Shown: one piece after another, positions 26,436 to 62,800 of the stretch
Numbering within the stretch: the first letter of the stretch is position 1
How the letters are laid out: every line of letters begins with the position of its first letter
Assembly (NCBI GenBank): GCA_965235115.1
Contig: OZ249436.1
Coordinates: 11,968,001 to 12,032,000, forward strand
Length of the DNA: 64,000 nucleotides
Direction: 5' to 3'
DNA from: Laetmonice hystrix
Lineage: Eukaryota
The notes under the pieces: model-generated
What the model was told of the DNA's origin: nothing
The model's input: the letters and a program-made list of their open reading frames with translations, nothing else
Database searches by the model: none
Program-made: the position numbers and the translations under genes

Positions 26436-29023
26436 GTAAGACATGGTGGGATTTACGCATATGGACAATTGGAGAATTGCCATCGTGAAAATGAAGATGC
26501 TTAACATAAGAGTGTTAGTAAGAGTCATACTCAAATTTGAGTTTGAAGCGTAGTCTGTCAGACACTTTGTGTGCTGTCCTGTGAGTAGGACCATCATGAA
26601 AAGTCGTATAGAAGAGATGAAGGAGCAACACGAAATGGATCTGCTCCCTGACTGCAATGCGATTCTAAGTCAGTGTCGGCACACAACTATAATTACATTT
26701 ACTGGGCAACGCTAAGGTCTTTAACACACCAAATGCCACCATTAGCGTGAAAGACCTCCATTATTTATTAAAGAGGTTGTCGGCGAAATTACATGTATTA
26801 CCTTTATGGATCTTTATAGTAGAATTAGTATTGTAGCATAACATGTAGAATATGACAGGTTACTCAAGTACATGTAGTGGTAAATAGTAACAACTGGTGA
26901 AGGGCCTAGTTTGTCTTACCTAGAGTGTAATGAGATAGTTTGTACCAGTCTGGTTAAAACGTAATAATGGATAAATTGTCAGTTCAGTATCAATAACTCA
27001 AAAAGAATCAACCAGTACATAAAAGCAATGCCGCTCTTTTTACGCAATCACGGTAGATTGTTTTTATTGTTTGTGCAGTTATATTGCAGTTTACTCTTTC
27101 CATTATCTATGTAGCTAGTTTTGATATTCAAACTGATAGGACAGAAGCCAATAATGTGGAAAGTGTAGTAGGCTGCTAGCATCACATGAGAAGATAGTTA
27201 CCATGCTTCATCAATCCATTTTATCGTATATTTTCTGTCTTTGCCTGTTCTTCTCAATGTAATATCTTGTGCATGAAACTAAAAAGCGTAATGCAAGGTT
27301 TTCGAGTTGGAGGAGGGAACATTATTTCCTTTCACCCCGGCAATGTGAAGATAAGTTTTCATGTCGTTAGCTTTAGCATTGCGTCAGCTTCTACCCGAAT
27401 CTCCTCCCATTTATCAGTATGTGAACCGGTGTGTTGCTTGGGAAGTAGACAAAATTTGGCCATGCTGAGTCACATGAAGAGTGTTGTACAGTTAGTGAAT
27501 ATCAAAACTGTTTCTTTTTCACACTTCTTTTTAGTTGGTCCCTCCGTTTTCGGGTCAGCAGGTAATGCCAGTTTGGACAGTATTTTAGGACTCCCTCCTG
27601 GCTGCAGCACTAACCCCAAAAGCTTAAACTGTAAGCTTCCGTCCCCTAACCAATCAGCCTGATGTGCCCGACGGCCACCAGGGGGTAGCACGTGAAGGTT
27701 GGCTGAAGACGTGTGGCTCGGCCTTTTGAGGAGTTGACTGGGTAGAAAATAAACTGGTGATCTGGGGGGCTGATTATATCCTGAGTGTGCATCTTCGGAG
27801 TGATGGACACGTTGGTGATGACGCAATATGGGACGTGAGCAGGAGAAATTGTTGGATATTGCGCATGATTTTTTTCATTGTCTGCTCTTTTATAACCATT
27901 GACTAGCCGGCCAAGGCAAGTAACAAGCCTGCATGAGTCCTTGCTTCCTCATAAATTCCCACTATCTCCCTCTCATCCTCCCTTTCTCTCCGTCGCTCTC
28001 CCTGTCTCTTTGATTCTGTTTCTTCCTTGTATTGCTCTCTCACTTTCTGATGCTCTGTCGCGTTTCCACACAACAGTAAGCCCCAGAAACACAGTCCATA
28101 CTAATACTGGTTAATGGAGTTGATGATGATTTCGGATCTGTTCATTTTCAATCTAATTTAAAGAGATGCCTCCTGAATTTTATGTTTTAATGAATGACCT
28201 ATGAGACGGGCTAGTCTGTAACATTTAATGATTAACATTTTGAGTTTCTGAAAATAAGTTCAGTTGAATTTACCTGTTTAACAGTTGAGTTGTTTTATAC
28301 ACTACGGCAACATATTTATGGTTAGGTCAGGTGTACCTTATGTAAACAATACATTCTGAACTGACAAGTAGAAATCTCATGATATGGATATATGTTTATT
28401 GGTTATATTGTTAAATTTAGGTTTATAGAAATCTACCAACCCCTAGATCCCGGGTACCATAGGTTTCTTATGTAGGAGCTCTGTTGAATTTTTTTATTAT
28501 TATTTTTATTGAGGAAGAACTTTTTTTAGGTTAAAATGTTAGATTCAATAGCAGTATTGTAAAATTATGATACAGATTGTAATCTAATTCAGTGAAAGTA
28601 TGATATTAGTTTTTTGTTTATTACTATTTCTTTCGAATGAATGATGTTTTGTGTATTAAAGTTGGTAGTGCTAGGCTTTTCATAATCTATGGATTTCATA
28701 GTGACCCTATCAGACCTAAATTTCCTGCAGATATGTACTGGTAATGTCCTCATCGAGATCTCATTGAGATCCTGCTACATGTATACTCTACACATATGGT
28801 TGCACTGAATACCCAATATAGATTATTATAACCAAACTGAAAGATCATTGCTTGGTATCCTGAACTGGAGCAGTATCGCATCCTTGTCTGTTATAATTTC
28901 ATTACAATAGTTGTACTTGCCAACCTCCCTCCTGTGCCAGTATTTTTAAATTATTAGCACTCGTATCATGAATGCAACCATCTTGTCCATTACTACAACC
29001 GGTATTGTGGATTATCCCTTCAG

Positions 29024-29192
29024 GGCCCAGTTTCAGAAAGGTTAGCATGATCTTAACTTAAGCTCTGCTTAGCCTTTTAGGACCCCTGATTGGCTGGTCT
29101 TCTGCTGCTCAGATTCAACCAGTCAATCAGGGGTCCTAAAAGGCTAAGCAGAGCTAAAGTTAAGGTCATGCTAACCTTTTTGAAACCGGGCC
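29024..29192. mobile_element. Palindromic Harbinger-like MITE, copy A
   Basis: About 75-bp arms GGCCC...GGGCC, about 19-bp spacer, CAG TSD. Confidence 0.88.
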
Positions 29193-29408
29193 CAGGATTC
29201 AGTTTTTATATTGCAAATAACTATTGTTATTACAACACATAGTTAGGTGACAGAGAGAATCCAAGCATTGGCTCTGGCACAAGTGCTGATCAGTGCACAC
29301 TTCTAGGCTGGTGCAGTGATTCAGCATTAGCAGACAGCTAGGCTTTACAGAATTTGCACGTATCACAAGGAATCCTTTTTCTAATCTTTCGTGGCATCTG
29401 CATTCCAG

Positions 29409-30274: not shown

Positions 30275-30432
30275 GTCAGTTGAGTGTAGCAAGTTGTGCA
30301 TGCGGACTCTACTGAAGATACTGAGGCACCACGCCGTCTACAAGGACGTGTTCCGTGAGGTGGGCCTGCTCGAGGTCATGGTCACGTGTCTGCACCGCTA
30401 CGCTGCACTCCTCAAGGAGCCAGAACGAAGTG
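30275..30432 (+). CDS. WDFY3: WDFY3 exon 10 (SVECSKLC...KDVFREVGLLEV...PERS)
   Basis: gttcag| ... G|gtacgt; phase 2->1. Confidence 0.9.
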
Positions 30433-32969
30433 GTACGTTCAACAAGCTATCCATAGCAATTACAGATTCAGAACACACTAGCCTAAAAACTTATATTACA
30501 TGTGTATGTATGTAAAGGCCTTTGTGTTTTATCTGGAAAAAAACATACATATCTCGTAATAGAAATTCGTGAGGATTTTGCACGAATATGGGAAAGTGAT
30601 TCGGAAAATTGAGGACAAGGTTCTGAATATAAATGAGAAACCTTGATGTATCTTACTTTCCCTTCTAAAGAAAGCTGCAGACACAAAAACTGGTAGTCTT
30701 AAGTCATTTTGCTCACAATAGAATACTGTATTGTTGTCAAGACTAAAAGTTATATCTTGAGGTACATGTATACTCAACCTATTGTATCACGGGACTTATT
30801 TTGGTCTGGGTTACAAAGATTCAATTCCATCTCCATAGCTTTGGTAATGTGGTGGTTCTTTAAAACGTGAAATACCGTTATCTTTCAGGTAGTTCAGACT
30901 AACACTACATCCGAATAATTATGTGCAGACGTTGGACTAGAGAGGATAGTTATTAAAAGGAGGAAAATAAGAAGAGAAACTGGTTTTGTATTATTAATGA
31001 TTACTGACATGAAGAAGCCTTTCAGAGTTCGGCCTTTGCCATGGTGTTAGGAGAGATCGAGTCAGGCCCCATGCTCAGCGTGTGTTCCCTGGATATGAGT
31101 CCAGTCACAGCAAACAAACGGCGAGGTCTGACAGCCCCATATTGCATGTGACCCATGTAATATGTTTTCAGATGGAGGGGATACGGATGGAGATTATTAT
31201 GATGATGATGAGTATGATCCTGAGGTTCCCCAGGGATACATCGTAGGTAAGATGCGTGCAGGTGCTGCTTCACCTTGCAGCCCTGTACACACAATACCCA
31301 CACACAGAATACACACACACGCCGGCCTAGGAAGGTATAATACCGGACCGGACCTGGCTTCTTCTTACAAGGGTGGAGAGTGTTAAGACAATCTGTCCCT
31401 CTCTCTGTCTCTCTCTCATGCTTTGGGAACCCGTTGTCCCTTTCAGATGGTAAGATACCGGTATTTGGTGGCCAAGGGTGATGCTTGACTATGGTGTTGG
31501 TTGGCTCCGGTGAAGCTTCGGACCATTTCCTGAATCATTATAATCTTTTTGATCATGGTGCTATTGAACATCATTTCAGAAATTGGACATTTCTGTTATG
31601 GTAAACAGTTATTTGTATTGCTGGGCATGCAAAATATCTTGCGTCTTTTCTCCTTGAAAAGCAATTTTCCGTTTGTGATTAAAATTTCAGCTAACCTTTT
31701 CACTTTTTTTGTATTTTTTTACAAGTATAAGACATCCTGGTTTATTTTTTGCTGTGTAGGTACTAATCATATTAGTTTTTATTTAAAGTCCGCTGCCTAT
31801 TTGGTCGAATAATTTGCCTGAAAAAGCAGTTGAACTCCTTTGTGAATCATAGGCCTAACAATCAGAAAGACCTGACTGTAGACACTTATATTTCGCAATT
31901 ACTACTTATCCAGTTAACAACAGGTACCATAGTTAGTTGACTTTCCTCGGCCGCATCTACTTTTCTCTCTTTCTATTTATTACTAAAGCCTAAAAGAATT
32001 ACAATGCTTACCTTCTAGTCGCAGGCAGTTCAGTTATTTTCACAACACATACTAACACGATTGCATACATTTGTTAGATTTTAAGTTCATATATTTATAA
32101 ATGATACACTATTTTATATCACAAGAGTAGATTATATGATTTTGCATTTTGTTTAGTCTAAGATTGTTCATCTGTAAAAATAAGGAAAGTGCAGGCCGAA
32201 GATTATCCCACTGGATACCTCTATTGTTTTAAAGAGATTAAACTCGGGTACCTTTGTGTACTTGGCTGTTTTGCACGTTAAATATATGATATTCTACTCA
32301 AATCATGAAGGTCGCAGGGACATGAACTGATTTTTCCGCAGACCAAACAAGTGTGATAACTCTTAGCAACAGTCTGGCTTATTAGTATGATTTGCCTGTT
32401 TCAAGTCCGCATGAGAAACCCTCCCCAGGAATGTAGCATCTGTAGCACGAGCATGCATCTTATATTTTCTTTCCTTTTGCTGCCCCTTATGTTGACATTG
32501 ATTCAGTCATTATTGGACCCATAATCAGCCTGGTTGTTCCCCCGTTCTGTCCATATAATTTGTTTTCAGCAGTGATTCTCCTATATTGTGTCAGAGAGAA
32601 AACGGAGGTAGCAGCCTGTTTGAGACACGCTGTATAATGGTTGTACCAGGTCACCGACTGAGTGTGCTAATGTCCACGACCTATTGACTTTCAGGTGACC
32701 TCATATTATGTGCTGTGGTGTGAATCTTTGGTGGCTCCGAGTCTATTGAAGTATTGTGACCCCATGGTCAATGGTCCTCTGTGGTGCTGGTGGAGAGTAG
32801 GTATCGGCAGTCCCGATGGTGAAGGTGGTGGTGGTGGTCCTCTCCGACGCTCCCTCTGGTGTCGTACATTGCTCCTACCGTCAGTTTGGTATAGTGATGG
32901 TAGCGCTCCCTGGTGGTAGTATGTCAAACTAACAGGATCTTCAATGTTACGTTTTTGTCTTTACTATAG

Positions 32970-33062
32970 ATTCTGCAGACATCCCCGAACCTGAACAGGA
33001 GATGGGATTTTTGGTGATGGAAGCACTCGCTGTACTGCTCAACTCTAACTCTCAGAATGCAG
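32970..33062 (+). CDS. WDFY3: WDFY3 exon 11 (DSADIPEP...LVMEALAVLLNSNSQNA); alternative in-frame acceptor at 32979
   Basis: ctatag| or ctgcag| ... G|gtaaaa; phase 1->1. Confidence 0.85.
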
Positions 33063-37578: not shown

Positions 37579-37747
37579 GGCCCGGTTTCAGAAAGGTTAG
37601 CATGATCTTAACTTAAGCTCTGCTTAGCCTTTTAGGACCCCTGATTGGCTGGTTGAAGCTGAGCAGCAGAGGACCAGCCAATCAGAGGTCCTAAAAGGCT
37701 AAGCAGAGCTTAAGTTAAGATCATGCTAACCTTTCTGAAACCGGGCC
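37579..37747. mobile_element. Palindromic Harbinger-like MITE, copy B (inverted relative to copy A)
   Basis: Same arms as 29024-29192; spacer is the reverse complement of copy A's; flanks CTG/CAG. Confidence 0.88.
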
Positions 37748-37901
37748 CAGAACATGAAGTGCACCATACGTCTAGCATCTGATTATATTTGAATTGAATC
37801 CACTAAATTTCTCCTTATTTCTCAGCATTGAGTGATGATAATTCTAGTTGATGCCTCAGGTCCTGGCTGATGTTGTATATCTCTAACCTCGATTCCTCCA
37901 G

Positions 37902-38561: not shown

Positions 38562-38780
38562 GTCAGATTTCTTATCTTCTTATTTGTAAGTCATAATACA
38601 AAGGACATTAAGATGTCAATTGTAGGGGCATAATACTAAGTTTGTTCTTGGAATATGGCATTTGTTCTGACTGGAAACCCCCTGATCAGACGGATTTCTC
38701 ATGCAAGGGCCTTCGGTTGTAGCATAGAGTCAGTCCCAGAAAATTTGGAAAGGATTTCATTTTGGTCCATTTGAGAAAAA

Positions 38781-39615
38781 GCCATAGTAGCAGCCCATAG
38801 CGCTGTGGTATGACTCTAAAGCCATAGTAGCGGCCCATGGCGCTGTGGTATGACTTTAAAGCCATGGTAGTGGTCCATGGCGCTGTGGTATGACTCTAAG
38901 GCCATGGTAGTGGTCCATGGTGCTGTGGTATGACTCTAAGGCCATGGTAGTGGTCCATGGCGCTGTGGTATGACTCTAAGGCCATGGTAGTGGTCCATGG
39001 CGCTGTGGTATGACTCTAAAGCCATGGTAGTGGTCCATGGCGCTGTGGTATGACTCTAAAGCCATAGTAGCGGCCCATGGCGCTGTGGTATGACTCTAAA
39101 GCCATAGTAGCAGCCCATGGCGCTGTGGTATGACTCTAAAGCCATAGTAGCAGCCCATGGCGCTGTGGTATGACTCTAAAGCCATAGTAACGGCCCATGG
39201 CGCTGTGGTATGACTCTAAAGCCATAGTAGCGGCCCATGGCACTGTGGTATGACTCTAAAGCTATAGTAGCGGCCCATGGCACTGTGGTATGACTCTAAA
39301 GCCAGAGTAGCGGCCCGTGGCGCTATTGTGTGACTCTAAAGCCATGGTAGCGGCCCATGGCGCTGTGGTATGACTCTAAAGCCATAGTAGCGGCCCATGG
39401 CGCTGTGGTATGACTCTAAAGCCATAGTAGCGGCCCATGGCGCTGTGGTATGACTCTAAAGCCAGAGTAGCGGCCCGTGGCACTATTGTATGACTCTAAA
39501 GCCATGGTAGCGGCCCGTGGCGCTATTGTATGACTCTAAAGCCATGGTAGCGGCCCGTGGCGCTATTGTATGACTCTAAAGCCAGAGTAGCGGCCCATGG
39601 CGCTATGGTATGACT
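38781..39615. repeat. 40-bp minisatellite, about 21 copies
   Basis: Unit gccatagtagcggcccatggcgctgtggtatgactctaaa with variant blocks. Confidence 0.97.
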
Positions 39616-40673
39616 GCCAGAAGAGGCTGGGAATTGAGGTGAATGTATCTCCTCGGCTAGGATGAGATGGCAGAGGTACTTACTGATGGGATTCGCAGTG
39701 CTATGATTGACTCGTTCACCAGTTTTTTCATCCAGAAGGTAAGAGTTTGGAGCACAAGCCCCTGGAAGGCAATCCTTACGCCAAGGCTACGTGTGCTTGC
39801 CTATGGGCCAATCCTGGGTGAGCAAAGGATTGATCATGGCATCCTGAGGGCTAAATACTGCTTGGAATCAGATCCTGGGGCATTAGCATCATCAGTACTG
39901 CCCAGTGCTGGTGAACTGCTTCTAGTCCCCCTCCTGGCCTGGCTTGGAGGACCAACTAGTTTATTAGCGTATACCATAAACATCCCAGTAAAGGTTAGTT
40001 TGTGGTATCACAGCATCCTTAGATCTCTGCGTGTGTCTGGTGTGCAGCTTGAATAGTTACTATGGTAGGAGAAGAGATTTGCTCTCACTAAGGTCAAGTG
40101 TTACTATGGTAGGAGAAGAGATTTGCTCTCACTAAGGTTTAAGTCCTAGGTCTGACGGGTCAGTGTGACCTTCTGGGAGGGGAGTTCATTGTGTAATCGT
40201 TATGTTATATTATAAGGTCTGGAATCATACTTGATGGTACCATTGGTAAGATTACCGGTATAATTATGCAAATTGTCACGACATATCTCTATCCTATTAC
40301 TTGATGTACTTGAATTTCAGTGTTCAGAGATTTATATAATGGCATTTATATAATGGCATCATATATAAGAGTTATCGTTATAATGATCACTCAAGGTGTT
40401 ACTTGGTATTTGGTGTACATACATGTAGTTTGTTTACAGGTGTTTGATAAGTATTTCTCATTTTTCAGTCTTCAGCTGTTTTCTAGATAGCTACACATGT
40501 ATAGGTGTTTAGTAATGTCAAGTATAGCATTAGTTGCCGAAGCAAATTTGAGAAACGCAATACCTGTACATTTTGATCCACTAACAGTGGTAAATATATA
40601 AAATGCTGGTAGAATTTGGAGCACAATATCATGGAATATTAGAGAATTTTCAGCTTTCATTGTTTACTTTCAG

Positions 40674-44148: not shown

Positions 44149-44425
44149 CTGATACTGTTGGTGATGCTGTTTTATCTAACCTGATACTGTTGGTGATGCT
44201 GTTTTATCTAACCTGATACTGTTGGTGATGCTGTTTTATCTAACCTGATACTGTTGGTGATGCTGTTTTATCTAACCTGATACTGTTGGTGATGCTGTTT
44301 TATCTAACCTGATACTGTTGGTGATGCTGTTTTATCTAACCTGATACTGTTGGTGATGCTGTTTTATCTAACCTGATACTGTTGGTGATGCTGTTTTATC
44401 TAACCTGATATTGTTGGTGATGCTG
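44149..44425. repeat. 32-bp tandem repeat, 8 full copies plus 1 partial, abutting the exon 32 acceptor
   Basis: Unit ctgatactgttggtgatgctgttttatctaac. Confidence 0.97.
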
Positions 44426-57348: not shown

Positions 57349-59811
57349 TTAATACATTGGAAATCCAGTGTCATTGTTGGGAGAAAAACTGTGACGATAG
57401 TCATTGTCCTCATATGCTGTCTTCATATAGTTATACCCAGGAGACCGTAGTTCATCGTTTGTATCGCGGGCAGTGTCCGGGTTTGAGCTTTCTTCCTCGC
57501 TGGAAGAAGCGTCATCGTCTGAGGTATCAGACTCTTTGTCACTTTTCGATAGGTCATTCTCGGGTGTGACCTCAGAGGTTGCGGAGCCCTCCTCGGGTTC
57601 GTCCATGGAGGTTTCATGGACTTCTCGACCTTCATCTATTTTGTTGGTGTCGTTGATTGTGTCCATGGCAACACTAGCAGCATAAACATCATGATAGGGA
57701 TTCTTCTCTTCGTCACCGGAACCTGAGCTGGTGGAAGACTTCCCTTGCTTCTTGTATTTTTCCTTCTTGCCGTCAGGTTTAGGTTCCACAGAATTCGATC
57801 TGACAGCAGGTACCCGGTCCACGTAATGAGTACCTGTATCCGACACGCGGTGTTCATACGCGTGTACCAAGTCTCCATTCCTCTTGACGTCGTTACCGTC
57901 TGAGTAGCCGACGACGCGAGCGTTCACGTCGGCGTGTTTGTTGTTAGGGTACGGGTCGTCATGATCGGCACGGTGTGCCGGGTTGTCGTAACCGGAAGTA
58001 CGCATGACCTCTGCTCGTTTGCTCCTGTTCCTCCGCTCCAGACTTCCCATCTCGGGATCGATGTACATGTTGGGTTCTCGCGAGCTGGAGAAATACGTCA
58101 GCCAACTTTTGTCTTCCTTGTCAGGCGTGGGTGGAACGCCTCCTGGAGGTTGTTGGACTGGGGGCGGCTTCCAGAAGGCGCACCGTCGACGGCGGCAGTA
58201 GCATATCAGAATGACGAGTAGAATGATGAAAACAACTATGCATATAGCTGCAATGATGCCCGCTTTCTGTACATCGCTCAGTTTTATTCCTGTGCTTCCT
58301 TCCTCGTCAGGTTCAAGGCTTACCGGCTCCCCTGTCGGTTTAACTGCTGCTGGTGACGGTTCACCTTTTCCACCAATGGGCTTTCTGACAGACCCGGTCG
58401 TGTCCTCCGGATCAATGACGGGTGGGGAAGGTGAGGGTAGGCGGCAGTTGTAATAGTACTCCCGTGCGTACTGCAGCAGAGACATGTCTATATTGGAACA
58501 TTTTGTCTTCAGTTCATTACCAAAGTTTCTACCTTGGCTCCAATTGTGCATCCAGGTCATTTGGCACGTGCAATGCCAGGGATTTTCTGAAAGATCTAAA
58601 AATCCGAGCATTTTAAGCGGGTCAAACACACCAAGTGGAATTGTTCGTAAGGCATTCTGTTGAAGGGTTAGAATGTTCAGCTTCTCAAGGCCACTAAAAG
58701 TGTTGACGTGGATGGATGCAATCTTACTGTTGTGAAGATGTAGGGAGGCTAGGTCTGTCAGATCACGGAAAATGCCGTCTCCCAGTGCTGTGATATTGCT
58801 GTTGTACATGTCGAGATACACTAATTTGCGTAAGCCCTTAAACGTCCTTGGGGTGAACTCAGTAAGGTCATTGTTAAAAACCTCCAGGAACTGCAAGTTT
58901 GAAAGGTCAGTAAATGCATCATCCTCAATGGCTGAAATCTTGTTGAAACTCAGATCAAGCGAATCAAGCCCAGTCATTGATTTAAACATTGTCTTGTCAA
59001 TTGTTTCGATAGCATTCTGCTGAAGTTTCAGTGTCTGGAGGGACGAGAGGCTTTGGAGGCTGTTTGGAGCAATTGTTTTGATGTCATTGTTTTCTAGATT
59101 TAGGATTATTAGATTGGGGAGGTTCCCAAATGTCTCAGGGTTTAAGGCACTGAGCTTGTTGCCTGAAACGTCAAGAGTCTCAAGGCGGAGGAGGCCGAAG
59201 AAAGAGCCGTCGGCGATGGAAGTCAGACTGTTCCGTGAAAGTTTTAAACTGACAAGTGATGTTGTGTTTGTGAAGGCTGATGTAGGCAAGGAGGTGATGT
59301 CGTTTTGCACAAACTCGAGTGTCTGAAGGTTAGGCAAGTGATGGAAGGTTGCCGGGTCGATTTGGTTGATGCCGTTTTCCTGGACTGAGAGCTTGCTGAG
59401 CCGGGCGAGCCCGCTGAACACCCCGGCCTGCAGGGTCTTGGAGCGCAGAGGTCGCAGGTTGTCCGAGTCGGTGAGGATGAGCGAGGCGAGGCTGTCGAGG
59501 TGCGTGAACGTACCCGGCTGGATGGCGTTGATGTGCTGGAGGTCGACTGTAAGCAGGCGCAGGGCGGGCAGGGCTGGGAAGGCACCCGGCCCCAGGGACA
59601 CGCGGTGGTTGCTGCGGAAAGCGACGTGCAGGGCGCTTACGTTGTTCGGTAGGGCCATGATATCCGACTGGACCGACACGATGCACTTTGTGCCATCCTG
59701 CAGGGTTTCACATTTAGGGGCCGCTGACACGGCCGACAGACTCACCTGAAGACAGAGCAGCACGGCGGCCACCCAGGCAAGGTGATGGGGATAGCGTAAT
59801 CCAAACTCCAT
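57349..59811 (-). CDS. Single-exon type I transmembrane leucine-rich-repeat protein (820 aa): signal peptide, about 15 LRRs, LRRCT, Pro-rich stalk, TM helix, long acidic/Ser-rich cytoplasmic tail, no TIR
   Basis: 831-codon ORF; first ATG at 59811 (MEFGLRYPHHLAWVAAVLLCLQVSLSAVSA, signal-like); LxxLxLxxNxI repeats; NPWHCTC LRRCT; TM AGIIAAICIVVFIILLVILICYC followed by RRRR. Confidence 0.93.
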   Translation of the reverse strand: MEFGLRYPHHLAWVAAVLLCLQVSLSAVSAAPKCETLQDGTKCIVSVQSDIMALPNNVSALHVAFRSNHRVSLGPGAFPALPALRLLTVDLQHINAIQPGTFTHLDSLASLILTDSDNLRPLRSKTLQAGVFSGLARLSKLSVQENGINQIDPATFHHLPNLQTLEFVQNDITSLPTSAFTNTTSLVSLKLSRNSLTSIADGSFFGLLRLETLDVSGNKLSALNPETFGNLPNLIILNLENNDIKTIAPNSLQSLSSLQTLKLQQNAIETIDKTMFKSMTGLDSLDLSFNKISAIEDDAFTDLSNLQFLEVFNNDLTEFTPRTFKGLRKLVYLDMYNSNITALGDGIFRDLTDLASLHLHNSKIASIHVNTFSGLEKLNILTLQQNALRTIPLGVFDPLKMLGFLDLSENPWHCTCQMTWMHNWSQGRNFGNELKTKCSNIDMSLLQYAREYYYNCRLPSPSPPVIDPEDTTGSVRKPIGGKGEPSPAAVKPTGEPVSLEPDEEGSTGIKLSDVQKAGIIAAICIVVFIILLVILICYCRRRRCAFWKPPPVQQPPGGVPPTPDKEDKSWLTYFSSSREPNMYIDPEMGSLERRNRSKRAEVMRTSGYDNPAHRADHDDPYPNNKHADVNARVVGYSDGNDVKRNGDLVHAYEHRVSDTGTHYVDRVPAVRSNSVEPKPDGKKEKYKKQGKSSTSSGSGDEEKNPYHDVYAASVAMDTINDTNKIDEGREVHETSMDEPEEGSATSEVTPENDLSKSDKESDTSDDDASSSEEESSNPDTARDTNDELRSPGYNYMKTAYEDNDYRHSFSPNNDTGFPMY

Positions 59812-62800
59812 GACGCACCGAAAAGTTCCAACACAGACACACACAAATCCACTTCAACCAAAAAGGGTGAAGCTGATAGAGAGTAGAATGTATATTCACT
59901 CTCAAGTGGAGTTTCACTTCTGAATTCTATCCTCCGTCTTAACTACACATAGCAAGTGTAGGGATATGAGGACATTAATGTAAAGATGTACGTCCGTACT
60001 CCGCAGTGGCACTAGAGTGAATGAGCGGCTGCCTGCCTGCCGCACAGGCCGGGGCTGGGAATATAGCTATATATGCATCTACCTGGCCGCCCACATGACC
60101 TAGATGTGGATCGGAGTGTCACACCTGGCTGCCTGCCGGTGTGATAAGTCATTAACGTGTAAGGTACACCAGTGGTCACTTCTGTGGATTCTTCCCGGGA
60201 AAACACTCACATAGAACTTCTCCTGTGATTGGAATGTAGGTGTTTACCGACGTGGGTGGTCACTTTTACCGGCTTCTCTGGTATTGTTGAGTGAGTGACA
60301 CGACTGTTTACACTGTCTTGTAGACGGTGCAGTATAGTGGTGATATATATAACTGTAGTTAGGCCATCATTGAGGTCCCCAAACGTGACCCGCCATCGTT
60401 GACTGGAGAGACAGGAACCAGCGTGTTTGGCGGACACCTGCGAAGACAGCCTCCATGTTGAGACAAGGAGGCGCTTCAAACACGTGCGACATTGCACCGA
60501 GAGTCTTGGCACGCCGGCCAGCTCCTCCCTCCAGTACGGGAGGTAGACTGAGCACCACACGGTCCTTGGCAGGTCTCCTTGTGATTGGGCTGCCAGTCTG
60601 TGTATGGCGGCACATCCATGGAGACCGGTGGCGTCAGTTGATGCTAGAGGGTAGTGAGGCGGGTTCCTGGATCAGACTGATTGGTACTCCTCCAGTAAAC
60701 GTTGCTGGAGTCGGACTGAATGTCTGATTCCAGCAACCGACCCAACCATCGCCCAACCACGGCGAAGTGGAGGCTGGAGGGGTGGCAGCAGCGGTGGGTG
60801 ACGCTGTCGTGTTGGCGAGTGATGCGATGCGTGTGATGGCGAGTGGGTCACTTTTAGTCACTCACTACTCCAGGCTCCGCTGACTCTGTCAGGGATGGCC
60901 TCTACTGGAGGAGGGCAGATAGTAGTGGGGGTCCCCTCCTACAGAGGGGGTGGGGTGGCGAGATATATCAGTCGGGTTTCACCCCAAACGGTTGGTGTGG
61001 CGAGGTTTACATGGTAACCTGTGCCAGAGTCACAACTGCTCTGGCCATGCATGCTGATCGAACTGTCAGCTGTAGGAATCACTGTGGTTGAACATTTACC
61101 AACGTTGTCACATGTGCTGTACTGCTTCACCCGTTACCGACATCTGTGAAGTATCACATTTCATCGGCCATAAATACCGGGTGCACATGCTACTACAACC
61201 ACAAAGACATACCAAGTCAACCCAGGCTAATACCAGGGTTTGTTCTCGAGTTCAGCAACTCGTAGCAGACTTAAAGGATCATCTACTTTCGATGTTATAA
61301 AGTGGGCGATGGACTCGCGTGGAATTAGGAAGAGCGGGTCGTGATGCATGTCGGATTGTGGTCCTAGGATTGTTCCAAATACCCACTGCCCCTATTGATG
61401 CTACGAGAGCAGTAGGCTAATGGGGTCGTAATGAATATAGCAGGCGCGTCCTCATCCAGCAGCGGATACTTTACTGACGAGTTTGGCCGTAATCAGTCTT
61501 GGACATTAGACAATTAATGAACCCACATCTTACTGCTGTATATAGTTAGATCTTTGTCGCAGTAAAACCTGGCCGAAGTTATATAAGTCAGAACATATCG
61601 ATGAGGGTAGGAAATGGGAAATGTCTTTCGAAGATAGAGCCCCCCCCCCTCCCCCACCCCACCCAGCCTAACTCACTGGACCGACCAAATTCAGCCCGTA
61701 TACACCTTTGCCTTTAGTATCAGTGAGTCAAAAGATGCACCTTCACTTCGGTTAATATTTGAATTTTGTGGGGGTCAAAATTGTTTTTGCTTCAATATTT
61801 GGCTGTTATAACAAATGCATAATAAACATCAAACCGCTTCAAACATTCGCTCCCGAGATTCATTGGTATAAAAATGGATGATTGGAAGCAGTAATCGTTT
61901 GTACAGTTTTAAAAACATGAAATGTTATTGGAGAATATTAAGGGTTGAATTGTAAATAATCTATGTGCAAACAATAGATCTACACCTTTTCTGCTTGTGT
62001 CAGTAATGACTAAAACAGGTGTGACTCATGGTAACCATCTGTCACAAACTTAGAGTTTATCACGCAAGTCGGAATCTTTAGGGCCTAATGAACTTGACAA
62101 CGTGTTGATGTTTGAGATCGGGGTTGAGATTTCTTGCAACTTTTTCAGGGCCAGAGATACGAGAACGAGTCGGACTTGGTGGTACCGTTGGGTGGATAGT
62201 TTGGTATTCAGTTACACACCACAGCTACCACAGATAACACTGTCAGCTGACCCATTTATCATTCGCGTGTATATTTGAACTTTTTTCGCCAGAAGACATC
62301 TGGAAGCAATTCCCCGTTCTTAAAGATGAGGCAAGAAAGGGGAATCACCCCATATAAAGAATGTCGGACTTTTCTAAATAATGACATCATTTATCATAAA
62401 TCAAAAGGCCTCATAACGTCAAGTGGCAGTTTTGTCTGTGGCTCTGTGTCAAATAATGGCCAGATGATTTCTTGTTTGGGACGGAGATCTGTTGGTAGTT
62501 CACGTTGACCGTTTTACCATATATCACCAGAAGACGCATCTCGCCTTTCCGGCTCGTGTCCACCCATGTCTGTCCAATTTATTCTTCCAAGAACGACTAC
62601 CGAGTTCGGTTATATTCATAGATTCGACCAGTCGTGACCAATTGACTCAAAGAATAAAAGTTTGTTTGATTCCTTAAAAAGGCGCCCGATTTTATTTTTA
62701 CTAAAATGTATATGCATCAATGGGTCAACAGTGTTAGTAAATGGCTAAGATAGGGTTCCCGGTGACCGGATATGTTATTTGTGGAGTTATGTCTGAGGTT

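Follow-up and report, generated by a model that had tools for sequence, protein, structure and literature searches.

The window, the whole 64-kb stretch of DNA analyzed here, carries the autophagy scaffold gene WDFY3 (WDFY3/Alfy/bchs). The locus is collinear with WDFY3 proteins and shared 52-70% identity with 28 named or labelled WDFY3 homologs in tblastn searches. A gene model of 34 exons was fitted to five homologs; it covers the first ~1900 WDFY3 residues only and is stop-free across 1907 codons. A quick maximum-likelihood tree of 24 proteins placed the WDFY3 of the window with those of the annelids Lamellibrachia and Helobdella (SH-aLRT 96). While 27 of the 33 introns measure 105-563 nt, six exceed 1 kb, intron 10 included. 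The model agrees with the first-pass annotation, which had assigned 30433-32969 to WDFY3 intron 10, in phase 1. The exon 10/11 junction is built as follows:

30275..30432, + strand: WDFY3 exon 10, constitutive, ending in phase 1 (gene model; 64-88% identity to WDFY3 homologs)
30433..32969, + strand: host intron 10, phase 1, 2537 nt (gene model; position and phase common to the WDFY3 of other animals)
32970..33062, + strand: WDFY3 exon 11; a second in-frame acceptor may lie 9 nt further on, at 32979

Within intron 10, a candidate microexon is framed by two splice sites:

31445..31446, + strand: 3' splice site AG (cag), score 8.3
31447..31449, + strand: candidate 3-nt microexon ATG, which would add one Asp (letters, phase, frame)
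31450..31455, + strand: 5' splice site GTAAGA, score 7.5

Re-reading of the sequence returned cag-ATG-gtaaga at 31447-31449, the same letters and coordinates as in the first-pass annotation. Because intron 10 is in phase 1 (G+AT), inclusion of the ATG would add an Asp without a change of frame; recomputation of G+AT = Asp from the gene model bears out the earlier claim that the frame is kept and one residue gained. Placed between a canonical AG and GT, 3 nt long and frame-preserving, the candidate fits the 3-27 nt range of eMIC microexons.

Splice sites were scored with matrices trained on the 33 introns of WDFY3 itself, a small training set. The acceptor, correctly reported before as canonical, exceeded 9 of the 33 constitutive WDFY3 acceptors. 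The donor had been called strong, which was overstated: its score exceeds 6 of the 33 constitutive donors, or 15 of 33 when the intronic part is taken by itself. Inside intron 10 the acceptor ranked second (tied) and the donor third, the two being separated by 3 nt. Both sites are usable and neither is exceptional. The same GTAAGA could instead close a longer exon starting at 31372 (78 nt) or 31381 (69 nt), with ATG as its final three bases. Both versions are in frame and stop-free, and the 3-nt islands at 27559 and 39736 resemble the ends of longer candidate exons. However, the upstream AGs concerned score 0.6 and -10.4, as against 8.3, and pair poorly with the donor, and the CT repeat described below would become coding sequence. 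We consider this reading highly improbable.

An ATG directly 5' of a donor is a common layout of first exons. An alternative promoter in intron 10 could give rise to an internal first exon that includes a start codon and closes at ATG-GT. This arrangement is contradicted by the good acceptor that immediately precedes the ATG and by the frame of exon 11, which from this ATG would be wrong because intron 10 is in phase 1. An internal first exon thus appears extremely improbable.

Upstream of the candidate acceptor the following elements were found in the sequence (negative positions are counted upstream of the candidate):

31388..31444, + strand: AG exclusion zone, 57 nt
31392..31417, + strand: CU-rich tract, an interrupted CT repeat with 12 UCUC/CUCU words
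31419..31421, + strand: UGC at -28, overlapping a YUNAY match, CTCAT, at -32

The AG-free zone of the candidate compares with 10-55 nt at 32 of the 33 constitutive acceptors; at the 33rd it measures 290 nt and is a tandem repeat. The long CU-rich tract pointed out in the first-pass annotation was confirmed by counting, with 12 UCUC/CUCU words in the 60 nt upstream of the candidate versus 0-5 at all 33 constitutive acceptors. The tract is set back from the AG and contains UCUC repeats, as expected of the eMIC type. In the accessible text of PMC8797185, a long AG-free zone together with a UCUC tract is characterized as mostly restricted to eMIC exons, and in the accessible text of bioRxiv 10.1101/2024.09.17.613571 the mammalian enhancer of eMIC exons is given as UCU_CUC[N1-50]UGC. 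Note that the AG-free zone and the UCUC tract had been named as features of eMIC exons before the candidate was scored. The UGC, also part of the earlier claim, is indeed present, but it is weak evidence because 10 of the 33 ordinary WDFY3 acceptors carry one at -45 to -6. According to the same portions of the preprint, UGC lies between branch point and AG in 74-79% of human eMIC cases.

No CUAAY branch point was found within 110 nt upstream of the candidate. The only YUNAY matches there are CTTAC at -83, which sits behind four other AGs, and the CTCAT at -32, which lies downstream of the CU tract. The accessible text of PMC8797185 describes a strong CUAAY branch point as enriched, not absolute, in eMIC exons, and very weak 3' sites as typical of fly eMIC exons. 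Intron 10 contains one TGCATG (RBFOX motif), in line with the 23 present in 64 kb, and the local fold of 31360-31480 was ordinary (z = -0.28). The phase, frame, AG-free zone and UCUC tract of the candidate support it as a putative eMIC-type microexon.

The CU tract is at the same time a microsatellite, and AG-ATG-GTAAGA downstream of it could be a chance motif, spliced in never or as noise. Chance expectation was gauged by simulating the 31,369 intronic bases with Markov models, 150 times at order 3 and 150 times at order 6. At the splice-site scores of the candidate, in-frame islands of 3-27 nt arose 0.31 (order 3) and 0.23 (order 6) times per run, and 3-nt islands 0.033 and 0.047 times, respectively. 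The former values are in favor of chance as far as the splice sites alone are concerned, and so is the missing CUAAY. In contrast, islands with an AG-free zone of at least 40 nt, at least four UCUC words and a UGC occurred in 0 of 300 runs at these scores and twice in 300 runs with looser scores, the true chance rate being higher than simulated because the candidate itself supplied the thresholds and microsatellites are under-represented in Markov sequences. In the real sequence, two islands at the scores of the candidate were present in the + strand introns, 31447-31449 and 39736-39738, and none on the window's minus strand. Only two places in 64 kb, 15161 and 31399-31417, had a (CT)n/(GA)n run of at least four units, and intron 10 is long in an otherwise compact gene; both observations speak against chance. 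The combined anatomy of the candidate is unlikely under simple chance models.

Intron 10 contains a further candidate exon, absent from the first-pass annotation, 200 nt upstream of the ATG microexon, and next to it an arm of a long-range duplex that was identified post hoc:

31172..31246, + strand: further candidate cassette of 75 nt with an open frame in phase 1 alone; it would encode 25 acidic, Tyr-rich residues
31247..31268, + strand: 5' arm of a long-range duplex, the strongest detected in intron 10; it covers the donor of the 75-nt cassette
32441..32462, + strand: 3' arm, partner of 31247-31268, about -32 kcal/mol

The putative 75-nt cassette has a weak acceptor (3.7), with CTGAC at -44 and UGC at -29, and its donor GTAAGA (8.7) is the second-best in intron 10. 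The predicted pairing of 31247-31268 with 32441-32462 would loop out the microexon, a configuration that also fits a real 3-nt exon that is non-neural or eMIC-independent, for example muscle-enriched, broadly included, or controlled by the duplex jointly with the 75-nt cassette. The acceptor, which is not weak, and the poor branch point are in line with such an exon. Moreover, the human counterpart of the zebrafish vdac3 3-nt exon is not neural-regulated (dPSI 1.6) according to the accessible text of PMC12626424. However, the UCUC tract and long AG-free zone are the very features described as largely eMIC-specific (accessible text of PMC8797185), and we regard a non-neural or eMIC-independent exon as very unlikely.

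Intron 10 might even operate as a two-cassette switch, in which an acidic 75-nt exon with a duplex-hidden donor and an eMIC microexon in the duplex loop would generate four isoforms. We consider this model distinctly unlikely; if true, it would provide the first worked annelid eMIC target and a recurrent exon-birth hotspot in WDFY3. An origin of the microexon by duplication of the 75-nt cassette was rejected, the likeness of their upstream flanks being no greater than that of 55% of 528 constitutive pairs. A duplex over the microexon's own donor was likewise dismissed as ordinary (equalled by 53% of 229 windows). Separately, a 19-nt acceptor-like stretch is repeated at 31153-31171 and 32551-32569 with 89% identity, with no in-frame exon behind the second copy.

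We next consider conservation. A metagenome scan yielded 47 animal WDFY3 loci, of which 4 lacked the anchor and were left out. The donor of the homologous intron was located in 43 loci (28 complete and 15 partial introns, in 22 sequence clusters); the introns of loci L028 and L044 were wrongly delimited by the search patterns, L028 really having a short intron. An AG-ATG-GTAAG island was found in 0 of these 43 homologous introns, all from distant animals and several just 100-180 nt long. None of the surveyed introns aligned to intron 10 of the window, except for GAT repeats. Loose AG-NNN-GT islands were common, for example AG-ATG-GTGGTT in L008 and L009, absent from related loci. Two longer islands were rejected as support for the candidate: a 9-nt island in L003 (beginning with ATG, donor GTAAGAT) is missing from other clusters and was counted as background, and another island of 9 nt, in frame and accompanied by a long U-rich tract (L030, 2781-2789; L031, 2762-2770; L032, 3979-3987), is confined to the cluster of those three loci.

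Both the lack of a conserved island and the frequency of loose ones favor a chance motif. The statement of the first-pass annotation that the programme is shared across bilaterians holds for the regulator but not for the target exons. From one phylum to another the set of targets is rewired almost completely, and flies and mammals have no more than four exons in matching positions (accessible text of PMC8797185). Because of this rewiring, and because the surveyed loci are distant only, absence of the island weighs just mildly against the candidate. On balance, we regard a chance motif as somewhat unlikely.

Protein isoforms were compared in 30 clusters, with up to 15 members listed for each. 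Among the members listed, 4 of the 30 clusters showed within-species differences at the exon 10/11 junction: +1 Val in Mytilus, +5 in Mya, +54 in Priapulus and 3 residues in Amblyraja. The Val of Mytilus would be equally explained by a tandem (NAGNAG) acceptor. In the window, a tandem acceptor was rejected: exon 11 begins ctatag/attctgcag, with no two AGs 3 nt apart, and without a NAGNAG it cannot give the extra Asp. Among the members listed of the 30 clusters, none gained just one Asp at the junction, and the sole annelid cluster (Ridgeia/Lamellibrachia) had no isoform difference there among its listed members. Further annelid proteins spanning the junction carried neither an extra Asp nor an acidic peptide among those found. 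The comparison shows an apparently tolerant, often alternatively spliced junction, with no recognizable ortholog of the candidate exon among these cases. A single-Asp difference was seen elsewhere, between the Bradybaena WDFY3 isoforms P0066 and P0366 near residue 2567, beyond the modelled part of the gene.

Three contig sets of a single sample gave at least 27 variant events in intron 10, none of them listed at 30583-31702 (31391-31423 skipped), a count to be read with the caveat that contigs drop alleles. These contigs contained no joints, an outcome that has no bearing on expression. After merging the events to 11 clusters, the gap had P = 0.02. Low variation continues upstream through intron 9 as far as 29810, and the whole may be a block of recent ancestry. 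The variant-free stretch is a weak hint for the candidate.

The Ridgeia homolog was modelled with AlphaFold2 (mean pLDDT 73.5); there the junction corresponds to an 8-residue loop between helices 246-265 and 274-291. This linker varies in length and sequence across WDFY3 homologs, and that of the window is unlike the amphioxus one; amphioxus was rejected as the host. An added Asp would be tolerated in the predicted inter-helix loop, and its effect on WDFY3 is probably small.

Several other features of the window were recorded. Intron 6 contains two candidate in-frame exons on the + strand. The first, of 27 nt (27535-27561), has an acceptor of 4.0 and a donor of 9.0. The second, of 33 nt (28077-28109), has weak sites (2.3 and 5.4) and follows 137 nt of AG-free, CU-rich sequence in which UGC occurs at -44 and -26; in molluscs, inserts of 5-14 residues are annotated at the intron 6 junction. 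In intron 23, a candidate 78-nt phase-0 exon (39661-39738, + strand) has a weak acceptor (0.7) and a strong donor, and its last 3 nt also form an AG-AAG-GTAAGA island with high scores (9.4 and 10.0). By eye, tandem repeats at about 38780-39610 (~39-nt units) and 44150-44420 (~28-nt units) contribute to the length of introns 23 and 31, and 29034-29196 and 37580-37750 appear to be two copies of a palindromic MITE-like element. On the minus strand, opposite to WDFY3, an 834-codon open frame (57349-59853) resembles a leucine-rich-repeat membrane protein and is possibly nested in a WDFY3 intron.

In conclusion, the ATG at 31447-31449 is probably a real microexon, and we lean slightly towards its being an eMIC-type neural 3-nt cassette exon. 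Its default state would then be skipping, and the eMIC isoform of Srrm234 would bring about its inclusion in neurons. A length of 3 nt is presumably too short for ordinary exon bridging; instead, the distant CU tract and UGC may recruit the eMIC together with U2AF/SF1, and inclusion is expected to be neural. One Asp would then enter the predicted inter-helix loop of the WDFY3 helical solenoid. The exon would be lineage-restricted, in an intron that appears to show isoform variation in other animals too.

If the exon is real, a programme of neural microexons known chiefly from work on vertebrates, amphioxus and flies would gain a concrete annelid target. The eMIC cis code would be readable directly from the DNA letters of a phylum on which we found no such study, and WDFY3 would become another gene that acquires eMIC exons at positions that differ between phyla. 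Even then the known mechanism would be unchanged, and a single Asp may have little effect in so variable a loop. Our literature search found no paper linking WDFY3 to microexons and none on this exon, nor an annelid or lophotrochozoan microexon study of this kind or an annelid eMIC target. Fly bchs had no match in the supplement tables of PMC8797185.

The candidate resembles the neural microexons of the SRRM3/4 / Srrm234 eMIC system in its length within 3-27 nt, preserved frame, long AG-free zone, UCUC tract and upstream UGC. It differs from the eMIC exons portrayed in the accessible text of PMC8797185 and bioRxiv 10.1101/2024.09.17.613571 in that it lacks CUAAY and its acceptor is not weak. 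Unlike fly eMIC exons, which have short surrounding introns, it is surrounded by long ones. Within the WDFY3 family, a vertebrate Wdfy3 exon of 84 nt is listed in supplement rows as 'eMICsens' in mouse (MmuEX0051785) and as neural in zebrafish (DreEX0084871). The family thus carries a neural, eMIC-sensitive cassette in vertebrates. A 28-residue isoform difference near residue 800, which we infer to be the peptide of this event, suggests that it resides in another intron; the exon is also of a different size and apparently not orthologous to the candidate. The WDFY3 proteins of Mytilus, Mya, Priapulus and Amblyraja share with the candidate a length variation at exon 10/11, and differ from it in residues and sizes.

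The closest likeness in length is found among single-codon exons. The single-ATG exon of VDAC3 was reportedly described by Sampson in 1998 and by Decker and Craigen in 2000. In the accessible text of PMC7831034 and PMC3106191 it appears as a single-ATG cassette exon, and that of PMC12626424 lists the zebrafish 3-nt exons of vdac3 (DreEX0084235) and cltcb (DreEX0022266) as neural. Like these, the candidate would be a 3-nt cassette contributing one residue, and with VDAC3 it shares the identical letters ATG. In contrast, the ATG of VDAC3 adds Met, whereas phase 1 would give Asp in WDFY3, and gene and phylum are different; the VDAC3 and cltcb exons are proven by transcripts, whereas the candidate has been read from genomic letters. 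One-codon neural exons are therefore already known, and by its anatomy the ATG of WDFY3 intron 10 is a likely addition to that class.
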